A stretch of DNA of 32,067 nt. Source: Dirinaria sp. TL-2023a (taxonomy: Eukaryota). The notes beneath the pieces are model-generated. The model saw nothing but the letters and a program-made list of their open reading frames with translations, did no database searches and was not told the DNA's origin. Below, one piece after another: positions 21 through 22,857 of the stretch. The DNA lies in the NCBI GenBank assembly GCA_051941275.1, contig JAVEBF010000087.1, forward strand, positions 1 through 32,067, in the 5' to 3' direction. Positions within the stretch are counted from its first letter, which is position 1, and each line of letters begins with the position of its first letter. Both the position numbers and the translations under genes were made by a program.

Positions 21-1628
21 CGAGAGCCGGGGAGATGCGGAGGGATTCGAGCGTAGAATAGTGTAGTAGCGTGGTTTGCGAGGTGAGGTAGGTGGTGGAT
101 TGGGACGGGTGGTTGTGCTGCTGGTGCTGGTGCTGGTGCTGGTGCTGCTGGGCGAATTCGGACCGGAGAAGGGTTTGGAAGGTGGAGTTGGCGGAGAGGT
201 TGATCAGCTGGAAGCCGAGGACTGTGCCGGTAATGTCGATGTTTGTGAAGAGGATCTCGTCGAGACTTTGGGTGTACTGGTGGAGGGAGGGGGATATGGA
301 TGTTAGCTTTACCCGACGCAGTTCGTGGGTTGGGGGAGGGGAAGGATTCGGGAACTGAGTTGGCTTTACCTCCATCATGCTCATGTCACCCCTTTCAACC
401 GCTCTGTAGATACGCTCCGCTGGGCAGGAGTGGTTCTTCTGTGAATCAGGTCTTAGTAACAGTACGCTTGTCGCACTCTCGCTGAGACAAGTGGCTGCTA
501 TACTTCTCGTGCACCTTGGATGATGCGTAGGTTGAGCTTCTCCCATTCTGAAAGGAAGCTGTTCATCTGCCGCCTGAACTTGGTGGGCAGCACGTTGAAC
601 CATGCAGAAGTGAGTGGCTTGCCGAAGATGGCCGCTCCCATCAGATTGTCGTGGTGTTCGCTGAGCTTGATGATTTCGAGGAAGTCCTGTGCAACCCCTC
701 AGTACGTGTAGTCATGGCTGGATATATCTGAATTACTGACCGCTTCATCGAAGGCTTCGCCGTATATGGTCAAAGCGATTAAGCGTAGGGTTATCTGTTT
801 GGAGGCTTTCATCATATCCTCTACAAAGGCACCGTTGGGTTTTTGTGCAATCGGGTCCTTGGGCAGGTCGTCGAGCCAGTTATTGATATGCTTTGAGAAC
901 AGCGAAACCATGTTCGTGCTAACTTGAAAAGAAAACTCAGGGTCGAAATGTCTTCTCATCGACTTCCACTTCTGCCCATTTTGCAAGCCAATACATACTC
1001 CAAGAAGCCTAGACGGAAATGATTTAATACGGCCCTGGCTGTATCGAGCAAAGACGCTGGAAATCAAGCTTACCTGCCGAAATAGTCGCCAAAATTCAAA
1101 TTTGGGGGCTTGAAATGGTCTAGCATTGCACTTAACAATTCCGTTCAGGCCCACATTCACATAAGAAATCGGACCTTGCTCGGCTTTGCGCAGATAGTCT
1201 TGGAGCTGGTCGGATGAGAACAGGACCAACTCCTTGACAGATTCCATTTGAACCATATAAGGATCATCTCCTGCCAGTGTTCTCCCTTCCTGGGAGAGCT
1301 CTTGACTGTGAGCAGCTTAGCTTTGCGTGTTCCAGGATGGAGCTGGAGTCATCCGTACGCGTGGGTAAATCGCTTGAACCGTGTGTCACCCTTCAACTGC
1401 TTGATTCTCCCTCCATGTTCATTCTTAAAATTATCATTTCCCTTCATCCCCGTCACTATGTCTTAATCCCATAAGGGTTTGGATCTTTCTTACGCGAATA
1501 ACTTGAACCGCGCTGCGTGAAAACAGTCCAGCAAGAAGCAAACCAATTCCGATTGCTAGATAGAGCTGGGTTCCTGTCTGAATCGAGGGCACGATGGACA
1601 GAAACCAGATGCTATCTTCCGATCGCAT
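21..1628 (-). CDS. Cytochrome P450 monooxygenase, 3' end truncated by the window edge; resembles the TenA/ApdE pyridone-pathway P450 class
   Basis: Hand-spliced exons 1628-1494, 1423-1359, 1305-1175, 1119-1074, 1008-741, 686-504, 438-370 and 276-21, with GT..AG introns and consistent phases (intron 1 acceptor least certain). N-terminal hydrophobic anchor (LYLAIGIGLLLAGLF), C-helix WKSMRRHFDPEF, I-helix LDEILFTNIDITG (226-261), K-helix ExxR = ESLR (37-48). The heme Cys lies outside the window. Subfamily likeness is from recall, not a search. Confidence 0.88.
115..150 (-). repeat. (CAGCAC)n hexanucleotide microsatellite inside a P450 exon, encoding a Gln-His run
   Basis: Plus strand gtgctgctggtgctggtgctggtgctggtgctgctg; in the P450 frame it reads QQHQHQHQHQQH. 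Confidence 0.9.
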
Positions 1629-2343
1629 GATGAGTATTAAGACGACAGTGCACGGCTAATGAACAGACGTAGGAAAGAGCGTGAAAGCAATAAGCTATGC
1701 ACCACAGGTCGAACCTTTAATCGGGAGAGAAGGCTAAGAGGTAGGACGTGCTGAGCCTTCCTCCACTAGCCATCATGAATGAGGAGATAATTACTCGAAT
1801 CGACTTCCTCAGCGAACATTGACCGAGAAGGCCGAGACAGCGTCTCCGATCGATGTAATAAAGCGAGCCCCCCCACATAAACTAAAATCTCACTTCAGGC
1901 GTACCCGCACGGGATCTTTCTCTGAGTAGGCGTCGAGGGCAGAGGCTGATTTTCAGGGTCCGGTGGTGCCGTACAACGGTGCAAGGTACGAGTTGTACCT
2001 TTACTCGTACATGGCGCCTTCCATGCCGCCGTAGCTTTTCGGGTCGCTTCTATATCGTACACGTGGCTGTCTAGACGCCTTACGACCTTGCATCTGCGGT
2101 GAGACGGGTGGTTGCAGCTCGGAAGGATTTTCGTCGCATGTCATCACGCAATCAATTGCGCGCGTACAAACACGCAGGACCCCACGGATGATTGGATCGA
2201 TGCGACGATAGCTCAGGTTGGTGGTACCTCATGTATCTGCACATAGAATATGGAAGCGACGAGGAGAGCGGAGTAGTACGATACAAGTAGAGCAGCGAAG
2301 TCAATATTGTGCTAGCGCTCCTCAGATCGGCATACTCGTATTC

Positions 2344-2456
2344 ACCTACTTTGTTGCGAGGGTTAGGGTTATCCCAGCAAGAAACCATAACCCTAAGTAA
2401 GGTAGGGTTGGAAGAATTTTGGTGGGTGCAACCCTAACCCTCGCAACAAAGTAGGT
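2344..2456. mobile_element. 113-bp inverted-repeat (MITE-like) element containing telomere-like TTAGGG/CCCTAA units
   Basis: Perfect 27-bp inverted repeat: acctactttgttgcgagggttagggtt (2344-2370) and aaccctaaccctcgcaacaaagtaggt (2430-2456). The 59-bp spacer has an inner AACCCTA..TAGGGTT stem. TA dinucleotides at 2347-2348 and 2452-2453 could be a target-site duplication. The repeat is certain; mobility is inferred. Confidence 0.5.
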
Positions 2457-2645
2457 AGGTGACCGCGATGTCGCGTCTCCTCAGCGCCCTCACCCTAAAA
2501 TAACCCTACAACGCAGTTCTCGTACTGTATTCATAACATCCACATGTAGATACTTGGACGCCTCGCCCCCCTCTCCCAACCCCTTTCAATTCTGGTCTCT
2601 GGACTCCACTGCCTGACTGATCACACGCTCACAACGTGACAACAG

Positions 2646-3855
2646 TCAATCATGATCCGGTGCAACCGCTTCCTTGACTTGCAGGGGCCCGCTAACCTCA
2701 TACACCAGTTTGACTCCCGATACCAGACCTTTCCGCACTCGATCGACACCGCCTCTGACCCCGGCCAGTCCACCCGTCTTCGTCTCGAGCGTGTGCGACA
2801 CAATCAATCCCTTGTCGAGCAATTCCTGCGCCACCTGAAACCACTTCTCGGCGAATTCGCGGTCTTGGGGTCTGGCCTCGCGCTCAAAGGGCCGTTGCCA
2901 CTTGACCGGCTTGTTGAAAATGGTGAACGCGATGATCCAGCTGGGTTTCACGCTCCGACGCGTGTGCGCCCGGATGGGAAATGGATCGAGTGCGACGTAT
3001 CGACCGCCTTTGCTGCCGATAGCATCGTAACACGTCTTCATCGACGACGTGTCCGTGATGCAGTCCAAGGCGTATTTTAAAGAGTTATCCGTGTATGCCC
3101 GGATGTCCTCTCCGCAACTGGAGGAGTGGTAGTCAAAAGCCTCGGCAGCTCCGAGTGACTTGGCGAGCTTGAACCGGCGCGGAGAGCATGTGACAACCGG
3201 TATCATGCCAGACCTGTGAGGGGGAAAAGGATTAGCATTGGAGAAGATGGTCTACCATTCACTCGCCTCGCCTTGACAAGGCAATGCCTGTCGAAACCCA
3301 ACTGCTTATTCCCACTTACGTCCGGATCATCTGGATGGCCAATGTCCCAGTGGCAGTTCCCCCGCCATGCACCAGAACGAAACCTGGCTGCGCAGCTTCC
3401 AGCCCTGGCCACGGTAGTTTCAGGGTGTTATAGAGCGCCATTCCTACCGTTGTCAGACCGACACCTAGTGATGCTGCCTCTTGGAAAGACATTGCTGGCG
3501 GTATCCTGAACACGAGATCTCCCGGCACCGCAAGGAATTCGGCAAAGGCTCCATTTTCAACTTCTTCAGGGTTGTTTCCAAACACGCAACCGCACACTCG
3601 GTCGCCAAGCGAAAGCTCTTGCTTGATAGCAGGGCCTACGGAGGTCACTTCCCCTGCAAAGTCACAGCCCAATGTGGCTCCTGGAGTTGGCGACAAATCT
3701 GCCGACTTCCCATCCACAGGATTAACCGCTACGCAAACGACTCGAACCAGAACCTCATCAATCTGAGGAGCTGGAATGGGGCACGAGGTGGCAAGCTCGA
3801 GCTTTCCAAGGCCCCGTATCTTGATCGCTTTTTGCTTTGTTGGTATCATAGACAT
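2646..3855 (-). CDS. Trans-acting enoyl reductase (LovC/TenC/ApdC family, zinc-free MDR), 367 aa
   Basis: Exons 3855-3320 and 3213-2646, intron 3319-3214 (GTAAGT..CACAG). Motifs [29 protein letters not shown] (NADPH-binding), [22 protein letters not shown]. Divergent from the PKS-NRPS. Confidence 0.95.
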
Positions 3856-4378
3856 TCTGATATATTTATGGATTCATATGAAAAGGTTCGCCTGGAAAGA
3901 AGCAGGGACGGATGTCTATTTTGAATTAATTAGGACTAGGACCTGCGTGAAAAGGATCCAAGTGCCCGGTAGTAGTTCAGCAGCCTACTCGCTCGGGATT
4001 TGCCAAAATGCCGGAGCTCATCTAGGCTTGACACATACGTTATAAAATCTGTTGAAAGCGTGTTACGCGAGCACGAAGGAATAATGCGATCCTCGACCCA
4101 TACTCACGTCAGCAAGCGAGGTCTACTGAGGCTGAAGTTGACCAGTCCAGCCGGAGGATTCGGTCTTTCCCTGCAAATGGCCGAATGTAACATATCAAAG
4201 CTAGGATCTTGAAAAATGTATACATAACCATCGGTCCCATAAGGCGTATGGAGACTTACTCTCCTTTGATATTTTTGATGCTATCAGTCTTCACCTTCTT
4301 TTTCATCCAGCAAACATGATTTAAATTCAGGCGGCCATACCTTTCTTTAGAGATTACTTTGAACAAGGTCATCCCATC
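3856..4378. promoter_or_regulatory. Divergent (bidirectional) promoter region shared by the trans-ER and the PKS-NRPS
   Basis: 523 bp between head-to-head start codons (3855 minus, 4379 plus). No specific binding site was established. Confidence 0.6.
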
Positions 4379-7300
4379 ATGGTCACTACCAAAGAGCCTA
4401 TTGCCATTGTTGGTTCTGCGTGTCGCTTGCCGGGTGGTTCTAGTTCCCCCTCAAAGTTATGGGACCTTCTACAGAGTCCTCGCGATATCTTGAGCGATTT
4501 TCCCAAGGAAAGATTAAATCTGTCTAGCTTTCACAACATAAATGGCGAACATCATGGCAGCACAGACGTCAAAAACAAGTCGTACATCTTATCAGAGGAT
4601 CCTCGCTTTTTCGACGCTTCGTTCTTCAATATCAACCCTAGGGAGGCCGACGGTATAGATCCACAGCAGCGTCTACTTCTGGAAACATGCTACGAAGCTT
4701 TGGAATCCGCTGGCTGTACGCTCGATCAGATACGTGGGTCTCTTACCTCAGTCTTCGTAGGTAGTATGACCAACGACTACTACGACATCCAAATCCGTGA
4801 CACGGAGACAATGCCAACGTACAGCATAACCGGTACCGCTCGGAGTTTTCTATCCAACCGTATCTCATACTTTTTCGACTTGAAAGGAGAATCTATGACT
4901 ATCGATACTGCGTGTTCGAGCTCGTTGGTTGCATTACATCAGGCTGTGCAAAGTATGCGTAACGGTATCTCTAATAATTCCATTGTGGCCGGATCAAATA
5001 TCCTCCTCGACCCTGGAACGTATATAGGAGAGTCTAAACTTCACATGCTCTCGCCTGATAATCGCTCTAAGATGTGGGATAAGTCTGCCAATGGCTATGC
5101 GCGAGGGGAAGGTGTAGCTGCCCTTTTCTTAAAACCTCTGAGCCTCGCGGTCCGAGACGGCGACTACGTCGAATGTCTCGTGCGAGAGACATACGTCAAC
5201 TCAGACGGCCGCACAAAGGGTATAACAATGCCTAGTGCCACAGCACAAGCAGCCTTAATTCGCCGCACATATAAAAATGCAGGATTAGACCCATTAGTCG
5301 ATCGCTGCCAGTATTTTGAGTGTCACGGAACCGGCACCCAAGCAGGGGATCCCCAGGAAGCACAAGCCATCCAAGAAGCTTTTTTTCCAACAGCCAGTAA
5401 TCAGCAATATCCCGATGACAAACTTTATGTCGGATCCATAAAAACTGTGTTGGGCCATACCGAGGGGTGTGCAGGCCTGGCAGGAGTCCTTAAAGCATCA
5501 TTAGCCCTACAAAACCAGACTATTCCGCCGAACTTGCATTTCAAGGAGCTAAGCCCTGCAGTAGCTCCGTATTACGGCAGCCTTCAGCTTGCCACAGATC
5601 CGACCCCGTGGCCAAAAACTCTTGGTACACCTTCAAGGGCAAGTGTCAACAGCTTTGGTCTGGGTGGAACGAATGCTCATGCCATCCTGGAAGCCTATCA
5701 ACGAGAAAATGAAGGAGGGTCCCACAAGTCCTGTTCCCCTGAGTCTGATCTGGAAGAACGCTTTGTGGGACCTTTGACATTTTCAGCTAAGACTAAATCG
5801 TCCCTCAATGCAACTGTACAAGAGTTCACGAATTTCATCAAGCTCAATCCTCACGTCGAATTAAAGGCTTTGACACATGTTCTATCAAGCAGAAGGAACG
5901 AATATAAAGTCAGGGCTTTCTTCTCCGGCGCAACGCGGCAGCGGCTTCTCGATTGCATGGGCAAGTATGTCGAAACACCGGAAGCTGGTGGCGACGAAGC
6001 GATAACGCAGCTGCTCAAGAGTCACCCAGAAGAGATCCCTGGTACGCTCGGCATCTTTACAGGCCAAGGCGCACAATGGGCGTCAATGGGCAGGCGTTTG
6101 ATAGTTCAATGTCCGCTGTTTCGCAAGTCAATTGAAGAATGTGAAAGCTCCTTGGCTACTCTTCCTGACCCTCCTTTATGGTCTTTGAAGCAGGAGCTCA
6201 TGGCTGCTAAAGAGAACTCGCGCATGGCTGAAGCTGCAATATCTCAACCACTGTGTACCGCCATTCAGGTCGCTCTGGTTGATTTACTTACAGCGGCTGG
6301 GATCAAACTGGACGCTGTAGTTGGCCATTCGTCGGGGGAGATCGCTGCAGCATACGCAGCTGGATTAATTTCCGCGCACGACGCAATACGGATCGCGTAC
6401 TATCGTGGTTTTCATGCGAAGCTCGCTCACGGCCTCAAAGGCGAATCCGGAGCAATGATGGCTGTCGGCCTGCCCATGGATAGCGCAGTGTCGTTTTGCT
6501 CGAGACGCTCGCTATCTGGACGCATAGGCGTTGCAGCAAGCAATGCTCCAGCGATTGTAACACTCTCAGGAGACTCGGCCGCCATTGATGAAGCCAAAGC
6601 GATTCTAGACGAGGAGAAGACTTTTGCAAGACTTCTCAATGTTGATACTGCGTATCATTCCCATCACATGGTACCTTGTGCTGAACCGTACTTAGCCTCT
6701 TTGAAGGCTTGCAACATCAAGGTCATGGCTCAACGGGAAGATTGCATCTGGATATCTAGCGTCCGTGGTGACATTGACCTTCTTGACCGCGACCTACATA
6801 TGCTATCGGGCCCTTATTGGGTCGATAACATGGTGAAACCGGTTCTTTTCTCGCAGGCGGTCGAGTGTTCACTGTGGAATGGTGGGCCGTATGATTTGGT
6901 ACTTGAAATTGGTCCTCACGCAGCGCTCAAGGGGCCCAGCCTGCAAACAATAAAACCAGCAACAGGGATCTCTTTACCCTACGTAGGTGCTCTAAAGAGA
7001 GGTGATGACGACGTTGAAGCATTCTCTAGCGCTATTGGCTATATCTGGTCACACCTCGGAAAATCTTTTGTCAATTTCGAGGGATATCGGAAAGCCTTCG
7101 AAGGTGCGGATTCAATTGAGCCCAAGATGCTGAAAGGGCTACCATCTTATGCATGGGACCACGAAAAGCTCCACTGGACTGAATCTCGCCTTACTCGAAA
7201 CTATCGTCTCAACACAGAAATTTCTCAGGAACTTCTGGGTCGACGGCTTCATGACGATTCTAAAAATGAATCACGCTGGCGAAACTTTCTGAAATTGAAC

Positions 7301-10300
7301 GAGCTGCCATGGCTGCGTGGCCATGAATTCCAAGGGCAAACTCTTTTCCCTGCTGCTGGCTACATCGCAATGGCACTTGAAGCTTCAAGGAAGCTTACAG
7401 ACCAACGCACTGTAAAGCTTATCGAGGTGCATGACTACGCCATACTCGGACCCTTAGTCATAGATGACAACTCATCAGGCGTGGAGACTATCTTCAGTGT
7501 CAGAGCTCCACATGGCAATTCGCGAGCCAAACAAGATGCCGTTATCTACTGCGAGTTTGATTGCTACGCTTGCCATGATGCGCTAGGTGGCTCTTTGATG
7601 AAGAAATGCATGGGTAAGCTACTCATCCATCTCGGTCAATCCTCGTCCGATGAGTTGCCCTCGCGAGTTCCAGGTCCATCAAGCGTTTTGCCTGTGGATA
7701 TGGAAAGGTTCACATCTTCAATTAAAGATGTTGGGCTGAATTATCAGGGCCTCTTCACAGGAATCAAATCATTGAAACGGACTATGGGCCATGCAACAGG
7801 ATCTGCAGCGTGGTCAGATGGCAGCTTCACGCAGGACTATCTGGTTCACCCAGCGTTCTTAGACAGCGGATTTCAGTCTTTATTTGCTGCCTTTAGCTCA
7901 CCTTCTAGCGGAGCGCTTTGGACGACATATCTTCCTGTCTCTATTCGTCGTATTGCTGTGAACCCTGGTGTAAATTTTTATTGCCCTCTAGGCGGGGTGA
8001 AGTTTGACGTCGATGCTTTCATCACTGACACAACCTTCAACTCATTTGTCGGTGACCTACATCTTTTTGATACCAATGGTAACGCTGGCATTCAAGTTGA
8101 AGGATTAGTTATGCGGTCGATCTCCGAGCCCCAAGCATTCAACGACCGTTTACTATTTACAGAGACTGTTTGGGGAGCAGATATCTCTTACAGCCTGGAA
8201 GGCCTAGAAGAGCCACGGGGTACGGACGGAGAAAATATTACTGAAAGATCTGGGCTCGCTTCTCTCAATGGATACATTGCACGAGTGGTCAGAAGGATTA
8301 CTTACAAATATCCGCAAGCAAAAATACTGGAGATTGGTACCGGCCTTGGAGATACAACCACATGTGTGTTGGACATGGTCAACCATGGATTTTCTTCTTA
8401 CGAGAAAGTAGGCGAAGAGATTGCTAAGCCACACGGCAAACTTTCCTTCCCTTCGCTTGATATAGGTAAAGACGTTGCTGATCAAGGTTTTACTCCTTAC
8501 TCCTACGACATTATCATTGCTTCCAACGCCTTTCGTAAAGCTTCGAATTTGGGTGACAAATTGCAGCATACAAGAACTCTCTTGAAGCCTGGTGGCTATC
8601 TGATTGTTTTAGACCTTACAGATGACCTTTCGTCCATGGATTGGGACGAACTCTTGCAGGCCAAAGCTTTCTCTGGTGTCGATAACGTTGTCCATTACAC
8701 ACCAGATTCTAGCAATGGCTGTTGCTCGGTAATTGTCTCTCAGGCTATTGACGATCGCTTCAACCTGATTCGCGATCCTCTTGCCTCTATTGCATCCATA
8801 TCGATGAAGGAACCCTTGCTGATCATTGGTGGAAGGACGTTGCTTATCGCTAGGCTGATCCGTGAAGCCAAGAAATTGCTAAGTCCATGGGGAAAGCAAA
8901 TCACCGTTGTCAAAACTGTCGATGATCTAAGCCAGCAACATCTAGCAACGAGAGCGTCGGTCATAAGCTTGACAGAGCTAGAAGGGCCTTTATTTGCAGA
9001 TACTATGACCACTGCTCGGTTGGAGACTTTGAAGTCACTTTTCAGTCAAGCTACCAACGTCCTTTGGGCCACTGCGGGTCGATTGTCACAGAACCCTCTG
9101 TCTAATATGACTGTTGGACTTGGTCGTGCTCTGTTGATTGAGATACCCCAACTGAACTTGCAATTTCTAGACAGCGGTATGGCTGCTCACCCTAGCTCTA
9201 GGACAGTCGTCGAATCATTCCTCCGACTCCTACTCCACAAGTCTCAAGCATTCAGTAAATATGACATGCTCTGGACAACAGAACCCGAGATTGCTCTCGA
9301 TGGTGATCAAGTGCTTATTCCTCGTGTTGTCATTGACAAGGCGAGAAATGACAGATTCAATGCTTCGCATCGGCTTGTTACCCACGAAGTTGATGCCAAA
9401 GCGGATCCTGTCGTTGTATCCTCTTTCAAAGACTCGCTTACTATGCGGACTATTAACTTAGTTGACCGTCAGAGTGATGCTGAATATACGCATATAGACA
9501 CAGCCTACTCGATATCCATACCCGCAAAGGATCGAGGGGCGCCTGTTCTGAGCCTTGGCACTAAGCATGGAACTAAAGAGAAAGTGCTTGCAATATCAGG
9601 GTCGCATTCTTCGGCGGTCGATGTTCCTTCTAATGAAGCATTTACTTTGAAGCAAGATGAGCAGAGCCTTAGCCCAGAGAACCTAAAAGCCATTGCCAAT
9701 CAGCTGTTCATAACTGCGCTCCTATCCGAAATCCCTGCTCATTGCTCGGTGCTATTTTATGAGCCAGATGAATCGCTCGCAGCAGCGCTCACGAAAGACA
9801 TGCGGTGGCAGGAGCGAGAGCTTTTCTTTTCTTCATCGAAGCAACTTCCTTTGCCAAAGGCATGGATTCGAATCCATCCACAGATTTCCGATCGGGCTTT
9901 AAAGGATGTCTTGCCAAGCGGTATAAGATACCTCGTTGATTTTTCGAGCGTTCACGACGAAGCGGCAACCTTGCTGAAGAATAGTCGCTCTGTCTGCTCA
10001 CTCGACACAACATTTCTGATGAGAAATTGCCAAAAGCTTCTTTCAGATGCCTACTATGCCGTCCAACACAGAGACAAATTGCAACCGCAGAAAGCTGACG
10101 TCGAAACCATCATACCAGCGCAGAATCTAGCTGGAGCTCCTGTGGCATCAAACTTGTATCCAGAAATTGTGGACTGGACGCATTCTAATCACTTCAACGT
10201 TGCTGTTCAGCCCCTGGAGCCATCTCATCTATTCTCTGGCAGCAAAACTTACTTCCTTGTTGGTTTGACTGGGGACTTAGGGCGGTCACTTTGCCGTTAT

Positions 10301-13300
10301 ATGATCAGCTATGGAGCACGATACTTTGCTCTTGCGAGTCGGAAAGCAGAAGTTGATCTTTTGTGGCTGGCAGAAATGCGGAAAAAGGGCGCCACTATCA
10401 AGATATTTAAAATGGACGTCACTGACAAGGACTCGGTTCGTGCAATTCACGCTACAATCAGTGACACAATGCCACCAATAGGGGGCGTTTGCAATGGAGC
10501 TTTGATTCTCGAAGACAAGTTATTTGTTAACAACAGTGCTGATGCTATGAATAAATCGTTGGGCCCCAAAGTCACTGGCTCAAAGCATTTGGACGAGATC
10601 TTCGCTGACAACTCACTTGATTTTTTTGTCCTCTTCTCATCGACAGCCAGTGTCTTTGGTAATGCTGGGCAGTCGAATTACCACGCAGCTAATCTTTTCA
10701 TGACCAGCCTAGTGGCCCAACGCAGGTCGAAGGGGCTCGCTGCATCAGTGATGAGTATTGGCATGATTACCGATCTTGGAGTTGTCCAAAGAGCAGGTCA
10801 AATGCTTGAAGATCACTTGCGGAGGCTCTTCTTCCTACCGTTATCGGAATCGGATGTTCACTACTTATTTACGGAGGCTGTCTTGGCAAGTCCTCCAAAC
10901 TCGAATTGCAGCTCAGACATTATCATGGGCATTGAGCTGTTCAGGGGCAACGCCGAATCAAAGGTTAAGCCACCATGGTATATGAATCCACGCTTTTCTC
11001 ATCTCGTGCTCGGAAGCGACGATAGAGAAGAGCAAACACAAGTGGCATCATCAGCCTTGCCTGTCAAACAGCAATTAGAGAGTGCGGAGTCCGAACAGTC
11101 GGCGATAGCGATACTTCAAGACTCTTTCTCTTCGAAACTCAAGTCCATGTTGCAACTCACGTCGAGCGCCGTCAATGTCAATACGTCTCTACTCGAGCTC
11201 GGTTGCGATTCCTTACTTGCGGTTGAAATTAGAACGTGGTTCCTGAAAGAGATCCAAGTGGACATTCCGGTGCTCAAAATAATCGGCGGATCTTCCGTAG
11301 CCGAGATATGCCTTGATGCTACAAGAAAGTATATTGCATCCAAGCCATTTAATGCTCAAGAGGAACCCCCTGTCAACGAGGTTGCTCTGCAGAAGGAGAA
11401 TAATGTCCGGCAGGGGGCCTCTGACACCACTCAGCTCGACGAATCTGATAGCTCTCAAGTATCAGACTTAGATTCTCAGCTAAACGTCGAGGACGTCAAT
11501 TGGACATCGGCAATGACTACACCTAACAACGAACCTTTCGCGACACTAGGTTCGAAATTGGGTCCCTTGGGCGACGAGCAATTCAAGAGAGTGGAGAAGA
11601 TGTCTTATGCCCAGTCGAGAATGTGGTTTGTCGGTAAATTTATGAAAGATCCAACAGCATGTAAGTTTCCTCTTGCGAGCTTTTTTCATGGGTTCTCCTC
11701 CTGCGGCGGAGCTTGAGAGCTTTGGAATGTACTTTACCATTGTCCACTCTTGAGATGTGCCTTCCAACTCACAATTGTGCCCTTACAAAGAGATATACTA
11801 ATTGGGAAATTATGAAGTCAACGTTACCATTTCCTATAATATCACTGGCGAGTTACAACCACGATTATTTCACCGGGCTTTGGAAACGGTGGTTTCTCAC
11901 CATGAATCCTTACGGACATGCTACTTCTCAAAGCCGGACAATGGAGAACTCATGCAAGGAGTGTTGACAATACCACCAAGAGGCTACTTTAAGCATATCC
12001 AGACTGAAGAAGAAAAAGCAATCAAACGGGAGTTTGACTCCCTGAACAATAAAGTGTGGAAGCTAGAAGACGGACACTCTTTTGGAGTGACCTTAATTAC
12101 CCGAAAACCTGAATCGCACACACTTATGTTCGGCTATCACCACATACTTATGGATGGCTTTAGTTGGTACCTGTTCTTGCGGGATCTTAACCTTGCCTAT
12201 CAAATGAGGCCCCTGGAGCCTGTAATCAAAGAATACTCGGATTTCACCCTTGAGCAGACTCGTTCGGTGGAAGAAGGAGAGCTTGAAAATCAAATCGAGT
12301 TCTGGAAGAACGAATTTCAAGAAATACCGGGGCCTTTGCCACTGCTTCCCTTCGCTCGTGTCAAAAAGCGCAAGGCTTTAAAAACCTACGACTCCAACAC
12401 TGCAAGCGCTATTATTGGCAAGGACTTAGTGACCAAGATCAAGAATGCTGGCCAGGCGCTTCGGGTAACCCCCTTCCATTTCCACCTTACCGTGGTCCAA
12501 GCCTTACTTTCCAGCATCCTGGACGTCCAAGACATCTGTATCGGTGTCACTGATGCCAATCGTGCTGACGAGAGTACCGCAAACACAATTGGCTTCTTTT
12601 TGAATCTCCTGCCGTTACGCTTCCAAGTCAACAAGGATGATCTATTTTCCGACGTGCTCGAGAAGACTTCAAATAAGGTCTTTTCAGCCTTGGCTAACTC
12701 GAGCGTCCCCTTTGATTTGCTTCTTGACAGACTCAGCGTGCCCAGATCCTCCACCCACAGTCCCTTATTTCAGGTGGCGCTCAATTATCGCATGGGAGAT
12801 GTAGCCCAGACCATACTAGGGGATTGTCAACTTGACATGAATTCCTACGCTGATGCTAAAAGCCAATTCGATCTCGCTTTCAGCGTAACACAGACCGCAG
12901 AAGGTGGTAGTATGTTACACATTACCTCGCTCAGCCATCTCTATACGCTCGAATCGTCGACGTCGCTTATGAATATGTACGTCTCCTTGCTCGAGAGCTT
13001 TTCGGCAGATACATCCTTGCAAATTCGAGAAGGATCTCTTTTCGATTCCCTAGAAGCTGAGCAAACGATCAACATTGGTCGAGGTGCTCGACTCAGCTAC
13101 GGGCTTTCGGCCACGTTGTCGGAACGGTTCGACATTATCTCGGAGAAGTATCCGGGTGATATTGCCATCAAGGACAGCTTTGGAGAATGGAGTTATTCTC
13201 GTCTGGCTAAACGGGCCAACAGCATTGCGGCTGCCGTACTTGACAAAGGCGTTGTTGCAGGATCGAGGGTCGCTGTCGTATGTCAACCATCGATGGACAC

Positions 13301-16052
13301 TATTGCTTGTATGTTGGGAATCCTCCGCATCGGCTGCGTTTATGTGCCGCTAGATGTGAGCCTCCCACAAGCTCGGCATGCCGCCATCCTGGCTCCTTGC
13401 GAGCCAAGTTTGATACTCTGCCAAAATTCAAATCGGGACTCAGTTTCTGAACTGGCTAGCGCCAGGACAAATATAGTGAATATTTCTGAGCTGAGGGACG
13501 TCCAGGCTAAGAAGGTTCACAATAGAGCCCAGCCGAACTCGCCAGCGTTCTTATTGTACACGAGTGGATCAACCGGTACACCAAAAGGGATTCTTCTTTC
13601 ACAAGCCGGTTTTGCTAACTTCCTCGCTGCTAAAGCTGACATGCTCTCAAGAAATGACAAAGAAGTAGTTTTGCAACAAAGCTCTTACGGGTTCGACATG
13701 TCTATAACGCAAACGTTCTATGCTCTTGCGTTTGGGAATGGAGGAACCCTTGTAATACCGCCACAAACCGCCCGAGGTGATCCAATTGAGATTGCCAAAC
13801 TGATGCTCGAGGCAAAAGTCACCTTGACTATTGCTACACCTTCCGAATATCTCATGATACTAAGGTATGGCAGAGAATATCTTGATCAGTATCCGTCGTG
13901 GCGTCATGCATGCGCTGGGGGTGAGACCGTCACAAAGCAACTCAAGCGAGAACTTCGCCTGCTAAACCAACCCCAACTTACCCTCATTGACTTCTATGGG
14001 CCTACTGAAATTTCAGCTGCCGCTGCAATGGGCATAGTTTCAACGGACGCAGATGAGAGCAATGATAGTGACGCTTATACATCGGTTGGGAAGACTGCTG
14101 CTAATACTTCTATCTATATCCTGAATGAAGACAGCAACCCTGTTCCCATTGGGTATCCAGGAGAGATTTGTGTCGGTGGTGCTGGTGTTGCTATTGGCTA
14201 CTTAGATCTTCCGGGATTGAACAAGTCAAAATTTGTTCCGGACCGATTTGCAAGCCCTGAGGACGTCGCTAAAGGATGGACAAAAATGTATAAGACTGGC
14301 GATCGAGGCAAGCTCCAGCTCGACGGTTCTCTGGTTTTTATGGGCAGAATTGGCAATGATACTCAAATCAAACTCCGTGGTCTGCGGATCGAGCTAGACG
14401 ATGTCGCCAATACTTTACTTCAGGCTTCACAGGGATTACTTTTGGATGCTATCGTAACAGTACGCGGTGATCCTGAGTTCCTTGTTGCCCACGTCGTATT
14501 TGCGCCAGGAAAGAGTACGATCGACGATGAGCTACAACACCTTGTTCAGAACCTACCATTGCCACAGTACATGTGTCCGGCCATGATAGTCCCATTGGAG
14601 CGTCTGCCAACTACGCAAAATGGCAAGATCGACAGGAGAGCAGTTGAGGTACTTCCACTGCCAGCCCGGCAGTCATCCTTCCAAGCACATCAACCTCTTA
14701 CGCTTGAGCAAGGTGAACTCAAGTTGGTTTGGGCAAACGTGCTCAAGCAGCCGGTTGAATCTCTCAGGGCAGGTCCGGAGACCGACTTCTTCATGATTGG
14801 TGGAAATTCACTCTTACTCGCTAAATTACAAGGAGCAATCAAGGAACATATTGGAGTCTCTGTATCATTGAGAGAACTTTATGGACTGAGCACTTTGGCA
14901 AGAATGACGGCGCGAATTGCTGCAGGTCGAGATGAACGGGCTTTGCAAGAGACCTCGATTGACTGGCACTTCGAGACTGCCTTATCAGAGTCACTCTACG
15001 TCGGCAAGTCTCAGTCACAGCGCCAACGGAAATTCAAGTGCTCTAATCAAGAAGTCCTTCTTACCGGCTCCACCTCGTTCCTTGGCTCCTACATCCTCAC
15101 AGAACTAGTAAAAGACCACAGCGTCAGCAAGATCCACTGTATCGCTGTTCCGGAGGATCGAAGTAGCCTTCCACAATCAGATAAAATAACAGCATACACT
15201 GGGCGACTCCTAGAACCAAACCTCGGTCTTTCCGGAGCCCAATCTTCCATGCTCGAGCAAAACATCGACCTGATAATTCACGCCGGCGCGAACGGTCACT
15301 GCCTCAACAATTACTCCTCCCTTAAAGTACCAAACTTTGACTCAACCAAGTCGCTAGCCTCCCTCGCCCTCCCCCGTAAAATCCCCGTCCATTACATCTC
15401 CTCGAACCGCGTTACGCTCCTCTCCGGCTCAGCATCTCTGCCTCCCGTTTCAATGGCAGCCTACCCGCCAGCTACGGACGGGTCCGAAGGTTTCACCGCC
15501 ACTAAATGGGCCAGCGAGCGCTACCTCGAAAATGTGGCGCGAGAGACCGGGCTGCCGGTATGGGTGCACCGACCCTGTGCGGTCATAGGGGATAAGGCGC
15601 CCAGCGAAGATGCACTGAACGCGTTGCTCCGCTACTCGATCCTCATGCGCGCAGTACCCCGTTTCGAAAGCTTTGCGGGTTTCTTCGATTTCAAGGATGT
15701 TGGCGCCGTGGCGGGGGATATCGTTCGCGAAGCTGTCACCGAAAATCACTTTTCCTCTTCCTCTTCCTTCTCCTCCTCCTCATCCTCATCGAAGACTGAG
15801 CATGCATCCTCCCTGCGCTTCCTGCACCATTCCAGTGGGACAAAAGTGCCGGTGCATGGATTGGGGCAGTATATGGCGGAGTTGGAAGGCGCGGCCATTG
15901 ACACTATTGCATTGAAAGATTGGCTCGCCAAGGCGAGAGAATTGGGGATTGAGGATTTGATTGTCACGTATTTGGAAGCGATCGTTGAACGAGGGGATAC
16001 CATTACCTTTCCGTACTTGGGGGAGAGAGATGGTGGCGGGGAAAAGATATAG
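4379..16052 (+). CDS. Iterative HR-PKS-NRPS hybrid, ~3838 aa: KS-AT-DH-(inactive cMT)-KR-ACP-C-A-T-R*
   Basis: Exons 4379-11660 and 11818-16052; intron 11661-11817 (GTAAGT..ACTAAT..AAG, phase 1, restores DPTAFNVT). KS DTACSSS (Cys 4913), HGTGT, GHTEG; AT GHSSG (6323), AYHSHHM; DH HEFQGQTLFP (7322), HPAFLD; KR VGLTGDLG, GQSNYHAAN; ACP GCDSL (11201); C HHILMDG (12138); A YTSGSTGTPKG, YGPTE, YKTGD, NGKID; T GGNSL (14799); terminal SDR-like LLTGSTSFLG..FTATK. Confidence 0.97.
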
Positions 16053-17444
16053 ACTGTGGATTTCTGAAGGCGTTTTGGTTTCTTTTAGACTTGTGATATT
16101 CTTTGACACGAGGACACTAACGATGATGAACATAGACTGATCATTTTCAAACTTTCCTATCAGCTTCTATTGACTATCTCACTTGGCAGATTGAGACTGT
16201 GTCGTTTCTAGACGGTCTATTTGTCTTACAAGCAAAATTCCAATCTCTGGTTCAACTATGTAAATCTTGCGCAGTGATGGTGAGCCTCAGAAACTTACGC
16301 GAAGTTAGTGACGCATCTGCACTTTTCGACAAATGATGGCTAGTATCAGTACCAGTATCAGTATCGGAGAAACCTTCGAGATCTTGATGCGTTATGTATC
16401 TCTTTTTTGGGCACGTTCTAACAAGAATTTATACACTGACCTCTTCGAGCACTTCGTCAGTATGCTTATCTAGAAGTGCGTTCAATGCTTCACGGTTTTA
16501 GCATTGTCAACAGTCTTCAATTGGGTTTGGGTCTCATCGGCGCCAAAGACGACTACCTAGCAAAGCAGAAAATGCATCAAGAATACCACCCCTGACGTCA
16601 AGAATCTCCTCTATCTATGCGACTGATCCTTGGAGTTGGCGAGTAGGCAAACCAGTGCTTCCAAAAACGGGGTATGAATGCGACGTTGAAGCACTTGCGA
16701 AAATCAGAGGAGATGCTTAAGATGCTTGAGATACCCATCTCATATACAACGTGATATACACCCTAAACACAGTCAGCTATATCGGGGAGACTTATGGGTC
16801 ACTGAGTAGTGAGAACAAAAGGCTTATATACGCATACGAGATAGCAATGGCGTTGGCCTTAAGTGCACACCGGAATTAGCAGCAATGACCTCCGCGGCAT
16901 CACCTGAAGGAACAACAGGAACGTCGCTGTATGTATGCCCAGGCATCTAGACACTTTCTCCTAATCAAGCTACTAGTGGGCACTGCAATGCCGGCACGCG
17001 TCACCATGCATAGACTAACAAATACCGCAGCATCCCTCCATGTATAAAGTTGCAGTACGAGTCTTGGAAAAGCAAGTCACGTAATCATTTATTCCTTTAG
17101 GCTTTCGAATGTCTCAGGTTAGTGGATGGCACAGATTTGCGGTAACGCACTTTCTCCCAAGGTATGATCTGTTGTGCTGATGGATTTGATTGTGAGCACA
17201 ACATCATACTGAGTGAACGGCCACTAAAGAATTAGTCTACTCCTACTAACGTGCCTCATGATAAGACTAAGGGAGCTTCGCATTCTAGAAGCTCATCATA
17301 AAATCGCATATGTTCAGGACATCCTCGGCGGGGATCCTCGGTGTAGCAAAAGTCCCCACGTGCCTTGATCGAACTCCCGTTGCTGCATCGTCTTATATTT
17401 ACTTTAATAAAATCGTGCCCCCAGAAACGTCCGTTACACAAGGG

Positions 17445-17469
17445 TTTTTTTTTTTTTTAAAAAAAAAAA
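17445..17469. repeat. Adjacent T14-A11 homopolymer tract (self-complementary) 3 nt before the formyltransferase ATG
   Basis: ggg-T14(17445-17458)-A11(17459-17469)-gcg-ATG(17473). Confidence 0.85.
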
Positions 17470-17472
17470 GCG

Positions 17473-18375
17473 ATGAGTCCATCAAGCCAAAAAAAGCGAG
17501 CGATCCTCTTCACGCGACGGCCAGCTTCGGTCACTTCGCGAATCATCGACAGCCTCAACAAGCGAGGCTACGATGTCCCACTGCTCGTCTGCGCCCCAGG
17601 GCCCAACGGCTCCCTATCGCCCTCCTCAATCCCCAGTCTCGGCACCGTAATCAGCGGAGTCCTGGACGAGATCGACCACCCGCCCGCCATACTCTGCGTG
17701 TTTAACACCAAGCTCCTAGAACAAATCTACATCGGCCTGGATCCGGATCTGTCACTCGTGTACGGCTTCGCTTACCCGATCACCAAGAAGATGTTAAGCT
17801 GCCGCGCCCCCTTCGTGAATTACCATCCTGCGCCTCTTCCGCGTATGCGAGGTCCTGCTCCCTTTGCGCGCATGGTGCTCGATCACAGCATAGAACTGAT
17901 TGCCTCTTGGCACTATATGGTTGCGGAAGTGGACCACGGCCCTCTAATCCACACCTGTGACCTGACCGTGTCGTCGTGCGAGCGAGAGAAGCTCACGGGC
18001 GGGGATGTCGCGAAAGCGGGGGAAGATGTGTTTTTCGCTTCTTTCGATACCTGCCTCGACTTGGTCGAGAGCGGGTTTGCTGGTACGAAACAAGACCATA
18101 CTGATTCTGTAGGGTACGGTGGGACACTGCTGTCGGATGAAGAAAGGACGATTCGGGGTGATATGACCAAGGAAGAGGTTCTGCGCCTGCATCGAGCGTT
18201 GACAGGTACGACGCAGAAACCGCTACTTCAGTTCGATGGCCGCTTAAATCATGTGGTTCGAGTGTCTGAAGTTGAGGAAAATGGTCTTGCTTTGGGCTCG
18301 CAGAAGCGGGTTGGAGCTCATATCATCCAGTCGTTCTGGGGAGGGGCACTGAAAATGGGAATTCGAAATGTTTGA
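17473..18375 (+). CDS. Stand-alone N10-formyl-THF-dependent formyltransferase (FMT-like), 300 aa, intronless
   Basis: PDLSLVYGFAYPI; VNYHPAPLPRMRGPAP matches the NxHPSxLPxxRG motif (Asn 17818, His 17824); SWHYMVAEVDHGPLI matches TxHxxxxxxDxGP (Asp 17932). The Asn/His/Asp triad is intact. C-terminal EVLRLHRAL resembles the FMT C-terminal segment. Confidence 0.88.
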   Translation: MSPSSQKKRAILFTRRPASVTSRIIDSLNKRGYDVPLLVCAPGPNGSLSPSSIPSLGTVISGVLDEIDHPPAILCVFNTKLLEQIYIGLDPDLSLVYGFAYPITKKMLSCRAPFVNYHPAPLPRMRGPAPFARMVLDHSIELIASWHYMVAEVDHGPLIHTCDLTVSSCEREKLTGGDVAKAGEDVFFASFDTCLDLVESGFAGTKQDHTDSVGYGGTLLSDEERTIRGDMTKEEVLRLHRALTGTTQKPLLQFDGRLNHVVRVSEVEENGLALGSQKRVGAHIIQSFWGGALKMGIRNV

Positions 18376-19314
18376 AGATAGGTCTCCTCGGAAAAGCTAC
18401 CGATATGTCATCAGCAAGTTTCTCCCGAATGTCTATCCCCTCGAGTCCAAAGCAATTTAACGTCCTCCATAAATTTTTCAATTTTTTTTTTTGGCAGCAC
18501 ATTATAACAGAAATACTCCAAATAATCCCATCTCGCCCATTCAAATCCCGCACACAAGTGCGCCTTTTTAACCAAACAACCTAAATTGGGAGTGCGGCTT
18601 ACTAAGGTAAGATACTACACACTTTCCGCACAGGCGAATGCTCCTTTTCTCAAATTCCAACACTCCTCGAAGTCTATCCACCCCCCCCACCTTCCATCTC
18701 CCATCTCGCATCTCCAACCTAAATCTCCAATCCACAAAACATCAAACAATCCAAATCCCTGCTCACCATCCTTTACGCAAGTACTCGCGCCGCTGGAAAC
18801 GAATGGATATATTTCACCACGCTTCGAATCCGGTACTATCTTGCTGTAAGGTAAAACACCCCACGCCAACCTCCCCAATCCAAAATCCCCATTGGCCATC
18901 CTCAAAACCCAACAATCCCCTCACTCATGATCACCTCATTCATTATCTCCCCCCCTCTTCAAATCCCTCCCTGAAGCTAACCTGCAAAACTGAGAAACAA
19001 CGAGTACAGTAACACTAAACACCCTCAATCATTTACTCTTAGTTTCGAATATATCCTTTGACCATGCAGAGTCAACTCACAGTAATATTCCCTCCAAAAG
19101 CGCAATACCCTCATCTAACCTCCTCTTTTATCCCAATCATTCTTTTTCTATGAATTCTCAACTTTGAATGGGCGCTTTATGGGATTTGATCGTGTCTTTG
19201 GTTGAGAGTATCGAAATCGAAATGGAGAGGAGGGTTGCTGTTTTAAAGGGGGTTGCATAAGTAAAGTCATAGAGCGCCAGGGATTGGAGGTGGGTTCTTT
19301 CGAGGAGGAAGAGC

Positions 19315-19333
19315 TTTTTTTTTTTTTTTTTTT
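19315..19333. repeat. T19 homopolymer
   Basis: Read directly from the sequence. Confidence 0.85.
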
Positions 19334-21229
19334 GGTTTTAAATTTGGACTTTGGTGGGTATCAGGTTTGAGGACTTCAATCTCATACTTCCATTTCACGC
19401 TTCTCGATGCTATATCAGTTACGTTTTCCTCGTCTGTTTCATTTCCGCATCATCCCTCGTGAGATACCACTCAAGCCCAACAAACCTGAGATGAGAAGCA
19501 TCGAAATCATCTACAAATCGGACTTTTGCCCGCGTTACCAATGCCCCTGACGAATATGATCTCGACACATCTCTCGCAAACAAATAAGGTTTCAATAGAT
19601 CAAGAAATATATCATCCTTTAATCGATTTTGATAACTCTACAATATAACCCACCTCTCTGACATTCCGCCATTACGACAGGGACTACACCAAGATACTTG
19701 CAAGCGTAGTAAGGAGCGCGGGGATTGTGTACAGAAGTCTTTATTCTCCATGTCTTAGTTGTTTCTTTGGCAACTTTGAGGTTCCGAGTATCGGTGCGTA
19801 CATCCAAGTCTTTCAAGATTTTTGTGGGCAGAATATGCTGTGAATGCCATCATGGAGGCCGAAAGGGAAACGGTTTTGTACTATATTTTGCAGAATATGA
19901 ACGACATGACGGTGTGCATTACCTTATACTCACATTTCTCATCGTAAAATGTTTTTCTTCGCACATGGATCTCGAGGAGGGAAATTGTGTTGATCAATCT
20001 TCACAGGGATTTCGTCTGTGTGGGATCTGAAGAGCCGTGATTGGACCAGTGGCTCTTGATCTAGATCGGAGGATTAACTCTCCGAACACTTTCTATGTCC
20101 AAATGTGGGCTTAGAAGGAAGACTAGGCTTGCTCTTGGTGGCAGAGTGTATTAACACTTATGATTCACTGGAAATGCATGTTTCTCTCCTGGCGGTACCT
20201 CAGGCGGCATCGCAGAATTTCAGCTCAGAATTCTTCATGAAGGATCGACTGTAGTGCAAGGTGCAGCTATGGTTTCTGGATATTCCTGGAAATTCGGTTA
20301 ATGGCTGGGCAGAAATTCGTTCTGGATAGATCTTCTATAAGGCTTCACTCGTCACAATAGAAAGATATATCCTTTAATGAACTGCTGAATGTTATTCAAA
20401 TTCCATCTCCCTTCTCAATCAGAGCCATTTCTTGTGATTGAGCCATGTTGTGAACGGAGCAACTCAAGTCCGATTTTCCACGATCACGATCCATATATGC
20501 GGTTAACACAGCGAAATTCATTGTTCAGCAACACTTTCTTTAATGCATATAACCCGGCCCTTATCCTGATCTTCCGGCAACTAGGTGTCCGGTAGAGGAA
20601 CTCGTTGACGATTGATTCATCTTCTGAAATAGACAATCCCTGATCATTAGCTTCTCTCAATACTATAAAGTAACTCAGCTGGCTAGCCGACTCGCTTTCT
20701 GATATCACACGTTAGCTAGACATGTCCACCGCATGAGGCAAACCTTTCTTGTGAAATGCGCATTGTTTCGAGGAACCACAACGCTAGCCGAGCCGCGTTC
20801 TGATATCGTGACCTCGGTCAAGTTATCATCATACCAATCGGATGGACCTTCAGCCGACTCAATTCTGCTATCAGTCATCTTTCACGTGGCCCAGATCGCT
20901 GGTCCCTGGCTCTCGGATCCAATTTCCGAGGTATTTTTCAATAGAAAGACCAAGGTGTTGATGCTGCACAGCCGCTTAGAACAAAGAAAAAATGTGGGCC
21001 CACCCTTGACATAATAGAACAATGAAAATAGCGCGATTGCTAAGCGAGATTGCCTAGCACAAAGCATTTGTTCTTGAGTTCCCCTCTTGAACTTTCCTTT
21101 CTTCTTTCTTTTCTCTCACCAACCTACTGTACTCCCAGGATTCTGCTCGTCTTCGAAGCTTGTTTCTTGCCCTACCAACTTGCTTCTCGCTTTACCAGCT
21201 TGTTTCTCACCTCATCATCATTTACAGCC

Positions 21230-22857
21230 ATGGCCATGGCAGCGATGGCTATGCTCGCTCAGTGGGTGTTTGGTGGGTTTTTCAACGGGGCTGCTGAGGT
21301 CCCCGCCTCCGTGCAGTTGAGGCCAACCTTGGCCTCACTGTATCGTGAAGCGCGGGGATCTCCAGCCCCCGCGACTCTTTCATACCAGCTTCAGCTGGTA
21401 CCAGGAGATGTCAGAAGCGGAGGTGGTCTATGTAAGCAACCAACTCCCACCGTCACTGAATTCCAAACAATCGATCGGCTCCCTTGCTCTTTTTGATTTG
21501 ATGTGTTTGCATCGTAGCTGCATCTCAGTTCTACTTTGATCGTGTCTTATGCTTAGTGCCTCCGTAGCAATTCCTGTCATCGTGCTTTTCCATAGTAATT
21601 AGCTAATGAACTTTAGTAGCGACCACAGACTACACCTGCTTGCTCTTCGCGTGGCTTCTCTTCTTGCTCTCGGTCGGTCTCTGTCTCTTCGCCTGTTGCA
21701 GCCAAGTACTCCAGGCGACGAAAGCTTCGCTCGTTCAATTCATCAAGGCGTTGCACGAAACCATCGGAACGCTGAACGAGACGATCGGAACGCTCCACCG
21801 GACAATCGAGGAAAACGTCTCCAAGATCGCCGAGCTGACCAAGACATCCGACTCGCTGCTCGACCAAGCCAACGATGCGAAGGTAGAAACGCGAAGGTAC
21901 GAGACATTGCTCTACGAGAACAAGGCCAAGATGGATTTTCACATGAAAGAAAATCTCATCTTGAGGAGCACCATCTTCGTACCCGTTGGCACCTTCAACG
22001 TCGACATTCAATTTAAGCGAGATCGCACGAGCGCCTCCAGCACCATCCCTTCTGGCACGATCTCTTCCGACGCTGACCCTTCCGACACCGTCTCTTCCGG
22101 CACTATCCACTCCGACATCGTCTCTTCCGGCGCTATCCCTTCTGGCACCAACCCCTCCGGCACCATTCCTTCCGACACCATTTCCTCGGCCACCGCTGCA
22201 GAAAAGCTACAGGAAGACCTCCCTCAAAAGGTGCAGGACGACCTGCCGCAGCATTCCGAAACGGTCGAGGCCGCGGCGCCGAAGAAGGGCCGCAACTGGC
22301 GCCGAAGGCAGAACAAGCGCGCGAGGAGGCCCGAGCCGGACGAGACGCCCGTGGAGCCTGACAACAAGAACGCCGAAGACCAGCCACGGACTGGGCTCTC
22401 TGCGTGGGCCTCCTTCCAAGCCACATCCGATCGGGAGCAAGCCGCGAGAAAGCAGAAAGCCGCCGAACAACTCGCCCTCCGAAAGGCAGAAGAGGCCCAA
22501 ACAGGTGTCCGGGACGAACCCGAGCTACCTGATTTCAAGGAGACCTGGAAACAGGTCAAAGTGAACTCAGGCCAGCGGAGGGTGGTCGGTGTTGGGAAAG
22601 GCCAGGAGGACGGCGGAGACAAGCCACGCACTGGCGTCTCCGCCTGGAACTCCTTTCAGGCTACGTCGGGTCGAGAGGAAGCTGCGAGGAGGCAGCAAGC
22701 CGCCCAGCAATCCGCGCTTCGAAAGGCAGAAGAAGCCCGAACTGGTGTCAAGCACGAGCCTCAACTACCTGAATTCAAGGAGACTTGGAGGAAGGTGAAG
22801 GTTGACTCGAACCAGCGAAGGGTTGTCGGTGTTGCCAAAGATCAACCTTCGAAGTAG
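21230..22857 (+). CDS. Hypothetical ~480-aa protein: TM segment, coiled coil, pentapeptide repeats, basic patch, two 80-aa C-terminal repeats
   Basis: Exon 21230-21431, intron 21432-21616 (GTAAGC..GCTAAT..TAG, phase 1), exon 21617-22857. Long, GC3-rich open frame. Hydrophobic LLFAWLLFLLSVGLCLFACC; basic PKKGRNWRRRQNKRARR. Confidence 0.75.
22042..22191 (+). repeat. Ten degenerate 15-bp coding tandem repeats (TIPSG/TISSD-type pentapeptides)
   Basis: accatccct tctggc / acgatctct tccgac / gctgaccct tccgac / accgtctct tccggc and so on, with an exact 15-nt period. Confidence 0.9.
22378..22840 (+). repeat. Two diverged 240-bp (80-aa) tandem coding repeats
   Basis: DQPRTGLSAWASFQATS..FKETWKQVKV..RRVVGVGK (from 22378) versus DKPRTGVSAWNSFQATS..FKETWRKVKV..RRVVGVAK (from 22618). 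Confidence 0.92.

Follow-up and report, generated by a model that had tools for sequence, protein, structure and literature searches.

A transcribed orphan PKS-NRPS gene cluster with a rare formyltransferase-like neighbour in Dirinaria sp. TL-2023a

The stretch of DNA analysed here, referred to as the window, comprises positions 1 to 32,067 of contig JAVEBF010000087.1 from Dirinaria sp. TL-2023a (GenBank assembly GCA_051941275.1), and its left-hand part carries a gene cluster centred on a hybrid of a polyketide synthase (PKS) and a nonribosomal peptide synthetase (NRPS). From left to right, there are a cytochrome P450-like gene and a gene for an enoyl reductase (ER) of the medium-chain dehydrogenase/reductase type, both on the minus strand, followed on the plus strand by the PKS-NRPS gene and, after a gap of 1.4 kb, by a 300-codon gene for a protein with a formyltransferase fold. 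All four had been proposed in an earlier interpretation of the letters made without database searches (hereafter, the sequence-only reading), and open frames together with Pfam matches locate each of them where that reading had put it. The locus is an orphan, uncharacterised fungal PKS-NRPS cluster for a polyketide–amino acid hybrid, and it is transcribed. Clusters of this kind are ordinary; the sole unusual feature is the rare formyltransferase-like neighbour, a candidate participant in the pathway.

The synthetase gene encodes 3838 codons between the ATG at 4379 and the stop codon at 16052 (plus strand), a model that draws on Pfam matches, motifs and an orthologous protein, P0007. It is interrupted by a single intron (11661–11817, GT..AG), and P0007 aligns across the junction without a break; there is no RNA cover over 11340–12006, such that the intron rests on the sequence and on this alignment. 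Exon 1 encodes, in order, the ketosynthase (KS; 4394–5542; PF00109 and PF02801), acyltransferase (AT; 6053–7033; PF00698) and dehydratase (DH; 7232–8134; PF21089 and PF14765) domains, the degenerate remnant of a C-methyltransferase (CMT) that gives a weak match to PF13489 (8276–8674), a ketoreductase (KR; 10247–10771; PF08659) and an acyl carrier protein (ACP; 11096–11311; PF23297 and PF00550). Exon 2 contributes the condensation domain (C; 11818–13064; PF00668), in which HHxxxDG is present, the adenylation domain (A; 13143–14627; PF00501 and PF13193), the thiolation domain (T; 14718–14918; PF00550) and a terminal reductase-like domain that matches PF07993 (NAD_binding_4) and is probably a Dieckmann cyclase (R*; 15054–16049). 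The order KS-AT-DH-CMT-(ER0)-KR-ACP-C-A-T-R within one protein identifies it as a fungal highly reducing PKS-NRPS, and its catalytic motifs, as commonly defined, are readable: DTACSSS, GHSSGE, HEFQGQTLFPAAGY, the KR Tyr, LGCDSL, HHILMDG, the A-domain core motifs and GGNSL.

The ER gene (3855–2646, minus strand; Pfam ADH_N and ADH_zinc_N) encodes a LovC-like protein of 367 residues. Its intron, 3319–3214, provides the sole GT..AG model with an open frame, and it is removed in an RNA contig. The best solved relative is LovC itself, the trans-enoyl reductase of lovastatin biosynthesis (PDB code: 3b6z), which matches the whole first exon with an E-value of 1.5e-27; a LovC-type trans-ER therefore stands beside the synthetase, although LovC partners LovB, whereas the ER in the window partners a PKS-NRPS.

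To the left of the ER gene, the window holds the 5' part of the P450-like gene, from about 1628 to 21 on the minus strand, an assignment that draws on RNA joints, Pfam and the Atlas. The spliced frame is open; its 384 codons in the window reach as far as ExxR, a motif that is present. The joints in the RNA contigs, which stem from a close relative, define six GT..AG introns (277–369, 439–503, 687–740, 1009–1073, 1120–1174 and 1306–1358), and these separate exons at 1423–1359, 1305–1175, 1119–1074, 1008–741, 686–504, 438–370 and 276–21. Upstream, a putative first exon (1628–1494), predicted to encode a transmembrane helix, would be joined through an intron at 1493–1424. At the other end, the RNA contigs break off loosely at base 21, on a GT, and the message therefore continues past the end of the contig through a further intron; the suggestion in the sequence-only reading that the cluster extends beyond the left edge is thus borne out. 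Several peculiarities of this gene may be mentioned. A 185-codon frame (702–1256, minus strand) mimics one exon, and it crosses the introns at 1009–1073 and 1120–1174, which together amount to 120 bases. Within 21–276, a His/Gln-rich run, QQHQHQHQHQQHNH, lies between an I-helix-like stretch and ExxR, and in the I-helix-like stretch itself, TNIDITG, the customary acid-Thr pair is hard to make out.

Transcription was assessed from contigs assembled from three RNA-seq runs on one lichen-metagenome sample, which were compared with the window up to base 20000. Contigs that are ~88–97% identical to the window cover the P450-like gene, the ER gene, pieces of the PKS-NRPS gene and, at 17568–18455, the formyltransferase-fold gene. 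The six introns defined for the P450-like gene, like the one in the ER gene, are spliced out, which establishes that the contigs derive from RNA. Between the synthetase and the formyltransferase-fold gene (16676–17342), the three runs give depths of 0, 0 and 0.25, and no contig from this sample bridges the two genes; there is no cover over 18677–20000. All four genes are found in the same lichen RNA sample, although what is seen is presence and not co-regulation. A pseudogene was also considered but is rejected, given that the frame is intact, the orthologue is conserved and RNA contigs provide cover.

Relatives of the synthetase were collected by a word search with its residues 1280–1800, which gave 522 matches, of which 120 were listed and searched by local BLAST. 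Among these listed matches, the orthologue P0007 aligns from end to end with 80.2% identity in the PKS part and 81.6% in the NRPS part; P0008 is next at 65% (NRPS part), and it is followed by an unnamed group at 53–58%. The best named proteins in the same list come from Pseudogymnoascus (49%) and Oculimacula (48%), again for the NRPS part, whereas FunA of Talaromyces coalescens (P0065), which we take to be the synthetase of the 2-pyridone funiculosin, shares 53% identity over KS-DH, 37% over CMT-ACP and 45% over the NRPS part. Thus, within the 120 listed of 522 matches, there is no close named relative, and the description of the locus as an uncharacterised combination of PKS-NRPS, trans-ER and P450 holds, the P450 assignment being probable. 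Among solved structures, the NRPS part finds its best relative in PsoA, the pseurotin PKS-NRPS (PDB code: 9x2c; E-value 1.6e-278, residues 6–1393), a distant paralogue with other product chemistry; the comparison with it is by search score, and not residue by residue.

The sequence-only reading had regarded the C-methyltransferase as dead, and an alignment of this region from the window and 18 homologues (19 sequences) bears this out. The window and P0007, alone among the 19, lack ten residues over the YTxTDxSxGFF motif and a further 31 residues over LLRMPFLMGGLPGWWLG...GRRLSPG, and both have lost the His of NVLHAT; in the other 17, FunA included, the region is intact. The synthetase therefore does not carry an active C-methyltransferase, a domain that is optional for the PKS-NRPS family. 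As the same lesions are common to the window and to its 80%-identical orthologue, the domain was already dead in their common ancestor, and the conservation of the remaining protein favours an enzyme that still works and produces an unbranched chain.

The same reading had noted a variant pocket in the adenylation domain, and here the outcome is mixed. Positions were mapped from the FDxS, GGE, YGPTE and GKxDR motifs, and the pocket reads roughly D-M-T-(I/A)-A-A-F-A-A-K, with the caveat that the mapping (GrsA-PheA numbering) was made by motif and not computed. Certain residues do differ from those of most relatives: ahead of YGPTE, where Cys is usual, the window has a Phe that it shares with P0007 and P0008 only, and at the position preceding GGE, the window has Ala, and P0007 and P0008 have Thr, as opposed to Leu, Met, Cys or Ser elsewhere. 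The pocket thus appears to be somewhat different from those of its relatives.

The terminal domain contains TGSTSFLG and G-F-T-A-T-K-W, in which Ser replaces Gly at its second occurrence in the NAD motif, and Phe replaces the Tyr of the short-chain dehydrogenase/reductase (SDR) signature. The same two states are found in FunA, whereas a fusarin-named relative, P0125, retains TGATGFIG and the Tyr. Redox-incompetent (R*) domains are reported to lack the catalytic Tyr. Both substitutions point, without being diagnostic, to release by Dieckmann cyclisation as the likely route, giving a 3-acyl tetramic acid. As an observation in its own right, the domain also bears a Ser-rich low-complexity insert, SSSSSFSSSSSSS, at 15742–15807, and here the RNA contigs of a relative are 4 letters longer (69 versus 66).

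On this basis, a pathway can be proposed. The highly reducing PKS module, together with the LovC-like trans-ER, would assemble a polyketide chain free of C-methyl branching, since the methyltransferase domain is destroyed, and the NRPS module would join this chain to one amino acid. The terminal domain, being devoid of the catalytic Tyr, would then release the product, most likely as a 3-acyl tetramic acid through Dieckmann cyclisation, and the neighbouring P450 would oxidise it; among several options, this step could be a ring expansion that gives a 4-hydroxy-2-pyridone. Finally, the formyltransferase-fold protein may attach or process a one-carbon unit at a late stage, although a neighbour with no link to the pathway is just as plausible. 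With moderate confidence, we therefore favour a tetramate-releasing orphan PKS-NRPS cluster, the right-hand part of which lies in the window, with the role of the formyltransferase-fold protein left two-way. The genes have a fungal structure, and, in view of the lichen-metagenome RNA and of a formyltransferase relative from a lichen fungus, the source is probably an ascomycete that forms or inhabits lichens.

A number of observations weigh against this interpretation. With regard to release, section 12 of PMC7421883 reports that Dieckmann and reductive terminal domains cannot be told apart reliably by any residues, and the near relatives P0013, P0015, P0017, P0018 and P0021 have Tyr at the SDR position; the Tyr/Phe state indeed flips within one clade of synthetase relatives, which fits the warning in that section that it is not diagnostic. 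The left flank lies outside the window and may contain further genes, for instance a hydrolase or a second P450. As for the P450, its C-terminal part with the haem-binding region is off the contig, and single exons score 18.9–19.1 bits against Pfam p450 (PF00067), below the curated cut-off of 22.8; for this reason, its identity is probable and not proven. In a 92-sequence FastTree made from NRPS parts, the window synthetase falls, like P0007 and P0008, amid unnamed proteins, outside the clade of FunA, CapA and their Fusarium counterparts, in a tree that left out TenS, ApdA, LepA and IccA. Lastly, the presence of transcripts is not co-regulation of the four genes, and RNA depth cannot rank them because it comes from assembled contigs of a single sample.

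The first of these points are also those that would favour a terminal domain that is a working reductase: an aldehyde would be released and would close to a pyrrolinone, with the hydrolase required for this lying beyond the left edge. The same section of PMC7421883 names an alpha/beta-hydrolase gene as a marker of the reductive route, in which release is followed by Knoevenagel closure, and no such gene was found among the 132 stop-to-stop open reading frames (ORFs) of at least 60 residues that a survey of the whole window returned outside the synthetase, the left flank being off the contig. Set against this absence from the window, and against the Tyr-to-Phe and Gly-to-Ser changes, a working reductase seems improbable, and we retain Dieckmann release as the preferred reading.

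Another assignment is that advanced by the sequence-only reading, namely, a 4-hydroxy-2-pyridone pathway of the tenellin/aspyridone type; the P450 would then act as the ring-expanding enzyme on a tetramate derived from Tyr or Phe. In the portion of PMC7421883 that deals with these systems (TenS/TenC/TenA and ApdA/ApdC/ApdE), the core gene set of the class comprises a PKS-NRPS that ends in a reductase-like domain, together with a trans-ER and an adjacent P450, and this is the set found here; the likeness is by gene set as described, and not by sequence. FunA has the same domain order as the window synthetase and, as noted, matching states of the terminal domain (TGSTSFLG, with Phe instead of Tyr), and the Ala-rich pocket of the adenylation domain could be roomy, a weak point given the motif-based mapping. 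There are nevertheless clear differences. Relative to the tenellin and aspyridone systems, the window has a dead CMT, a truncated P450, no second P450 in view and a formyltransferase-fold gene alongside; relative to FunA, the CMT is lost, the pocket residues are different and the synthetase belongs to a separate clade. Moreover, the evidence that the P450 itself provides is unspecific: its nearest Atlas cluster (score 0.95) says merely P450, with no finer type; a search with the 555-base P450 frame, a query that reads through two introns, returned no relatives; and searching PDB sequences with the final P450 exon gave nothing beyond a chance match. We regard the pyridone pathway as doubtful, and a 2-pyridone product is a guess; on this point, as on a formylated product, the sequence-only reading was reasonable but ahead of the evidence. 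Oxidation of a tetramate by the P450, with the type of reaction left broad, is the version that we carry forward.

The formyltransferase-fold gene consists of a single exon (17473–18375, plus strand) that encodes 300 residues. The sequence-only reading had seen a formyl-tetrahydrofolate transferase beside the cluster, and a genuine formyltransferase-fold gene is confirmed by three lines of evidence that place its product in the superfamily. Its match to PF00551 (Formyl_trans_N) scores 27.2 bits against a cut-off of 26.1; Asn116, His118 and Asp154 are invariant in 18/18 family sequences and align with the active-site motifs of the methionyl-tRNA formyltransferase Fmt; and an AlphaFold (AF2) model with two domains (predicted local distance difference test 90.6, predicted template modelling score 0.87) finds, as its top Foldseek matches, Met-tRNA formyltransferases over both domains (E-value 3e-16; template modelling (TM) scores of 0.72/0.69). 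The residues and the model together suggest that the protein is probably an active enzyme of the superfamily.

Its likeness to Fmt, which includes the two-domain fold (TM score about 0.7), the Asn-His-Asp triad and an HxxxLPxxRG motif, is nonetheless limited. Identity to Fmt structures is 17–21%, the family is tiny, and against the Fmt equivalog TIGR00460, the protein scores 40.4 bits, where the cut-off is 201.5, with four other family members at 31–55. It has no N-terminal presequence, as strand 1 of the model begins at residue 8. Accordingly, it is not the housekeeping mitochondrial Met-tRNA formyltransferase. Close relatives number five in a collection of 5.8 billion sequences, and among 1.84 billion, there are 27 representatives at E<=1e-10 and 312 at E<=0.001. 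Two of the ten representatives looked up belong to named clusters: one is a hypothetical protein (KAL9056564.1) from the lichen fungus Coniocarpon cinnabarinum, and the other consists of JGI metagenome proteins automatically named methionyl-tRNA formyltransferase. The nearest Atlas clusters are bacterial stand-alone proteins of the formyltransferase family (score 0.96). Charge and isoelectric point across the family gave no hint of the substrate.

Whether this protein belongs to the pathway is a separate matter, and one on which we lean slightly towards its being a mere neighbour, with the cluster ending at the stop codon of the PKS-NRPS gene, and the formyltransferase-fold protein having its own job in one-carbon or other metabolism. 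The 1.4-kb gap that follows the synthetase is nearly devoid of RNA cover, and the 13.7 kb to the right of the formyltransferase-fold gene contain nothing biosynthetic. The chemistry is also not inviting: N-formylation of an alpha-amine would block condensation, and, by the usual NRPS rules, the pocket of the adenylation domain offers no acidic residue to suit a side-chain amine. Two further results speak against a common pathway. The three upstream regions share no 8-, 9- or 10-mer, and the contigs of the formyltransferase relatives (51198, 26016, 65400, 11908, 10705, 14253, 120219 and 81741 bases) match in size none of those that bear the 120 listed synthetase relatives; for example, the 76%-identical formyltransferase relative P0003 is on a 51-kb contig, as against a 20-kb contig for the synthetase orthologue P0007. 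The argument from contig size is, however, weak, because the synthetase of the window is itself absent from that protein collection.

Several features argue in the opposite direction. The formyltransferase-fold gene is directly downstream of the synthetase on the same strand, and both genes appear in the same lichen RNA sample. The family to which it belongs is, with its 27 representatives, tiny, and the protein falls far below the score expected of a housekeeping Fmt. Moreover, the two genes diverge in parallel: the formyltransferase relatives are 91%, 76% and 60% identical, and those of the synthetase are ~95% identical in nucleotides (the RNA sample) and then 82% and 65% in amino acids. Scans for co-occurrence gave no additional support. 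With P0137 as the query, JGI metagenome contigs yielded no relative; with P0020, they gave seven distant synthetase loci (26–44% identity), in none of which was a formyltransferase relative detected (tblastn, five queries), a result that speaks to distant relatives and not to close ones. Likewise, a literature search found no formyltransferase step for fungal PKS-NRPS, tetramate or lichen clusters. All in all, membership of the pathway is conceivable, at somewhat below even chances, and the stronger proposal, which makes the Fmt-fold protein a tailoring enzyme dedicated to this pathway that adds a formyl or other one-carbon group to the PKS-NRPS tetramate or pyridone, is unlikely.

In the remainder of the window, the survey of 132 frames found no hydrolase, regulator, transporter or cyclase; beyond the four genes, it gave just an ABC-F-type ATPase and a metallopeptidase. 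The former is a multi-exon gene at about 23819–26318 on the minus strand (ABC_tran twice and ABC_tran_Xtn), and its product is probably no exporter but a translation factor with a housekeeping role. The latter encodes an Aspzincin M35 (deuterolysin-like) metallopeptidase with a Ser-rich tail, which begins at 30721 on the plus strand and runs off the right edge at 32067. Finally, a 415-codon open frame at 21610–22857 (plus strand; G+C fraction 0.60) matches no Pfam family; it contains a tandem internal duplication of ~70 residues (PRTG.SAW.SFQATS...KETW..VKV...QRRVVGV) as well as repeats rich in Ser, Thr and Pro.

To our knowledge, PKS-NRPS products from lichen fungi are almost unknown. The window provides an intact PKS-NRPS gene that is transcribed in a lichen sample, and the product of this lichen-fungus enzyme is partly predictable, with no C-methylation and probable release as a tetramate, which makes the gene a reasonable target for heterologous expression. 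Should the formyltransferase-fold protein take no part, the locus would be one more orphan cluster among many. If, on the other hand, it does participate, PKS-NRPS biosynthesis would gain a new tailoring reaction through the recruitment of a small formyltransferase family known to date from lichen fungi.

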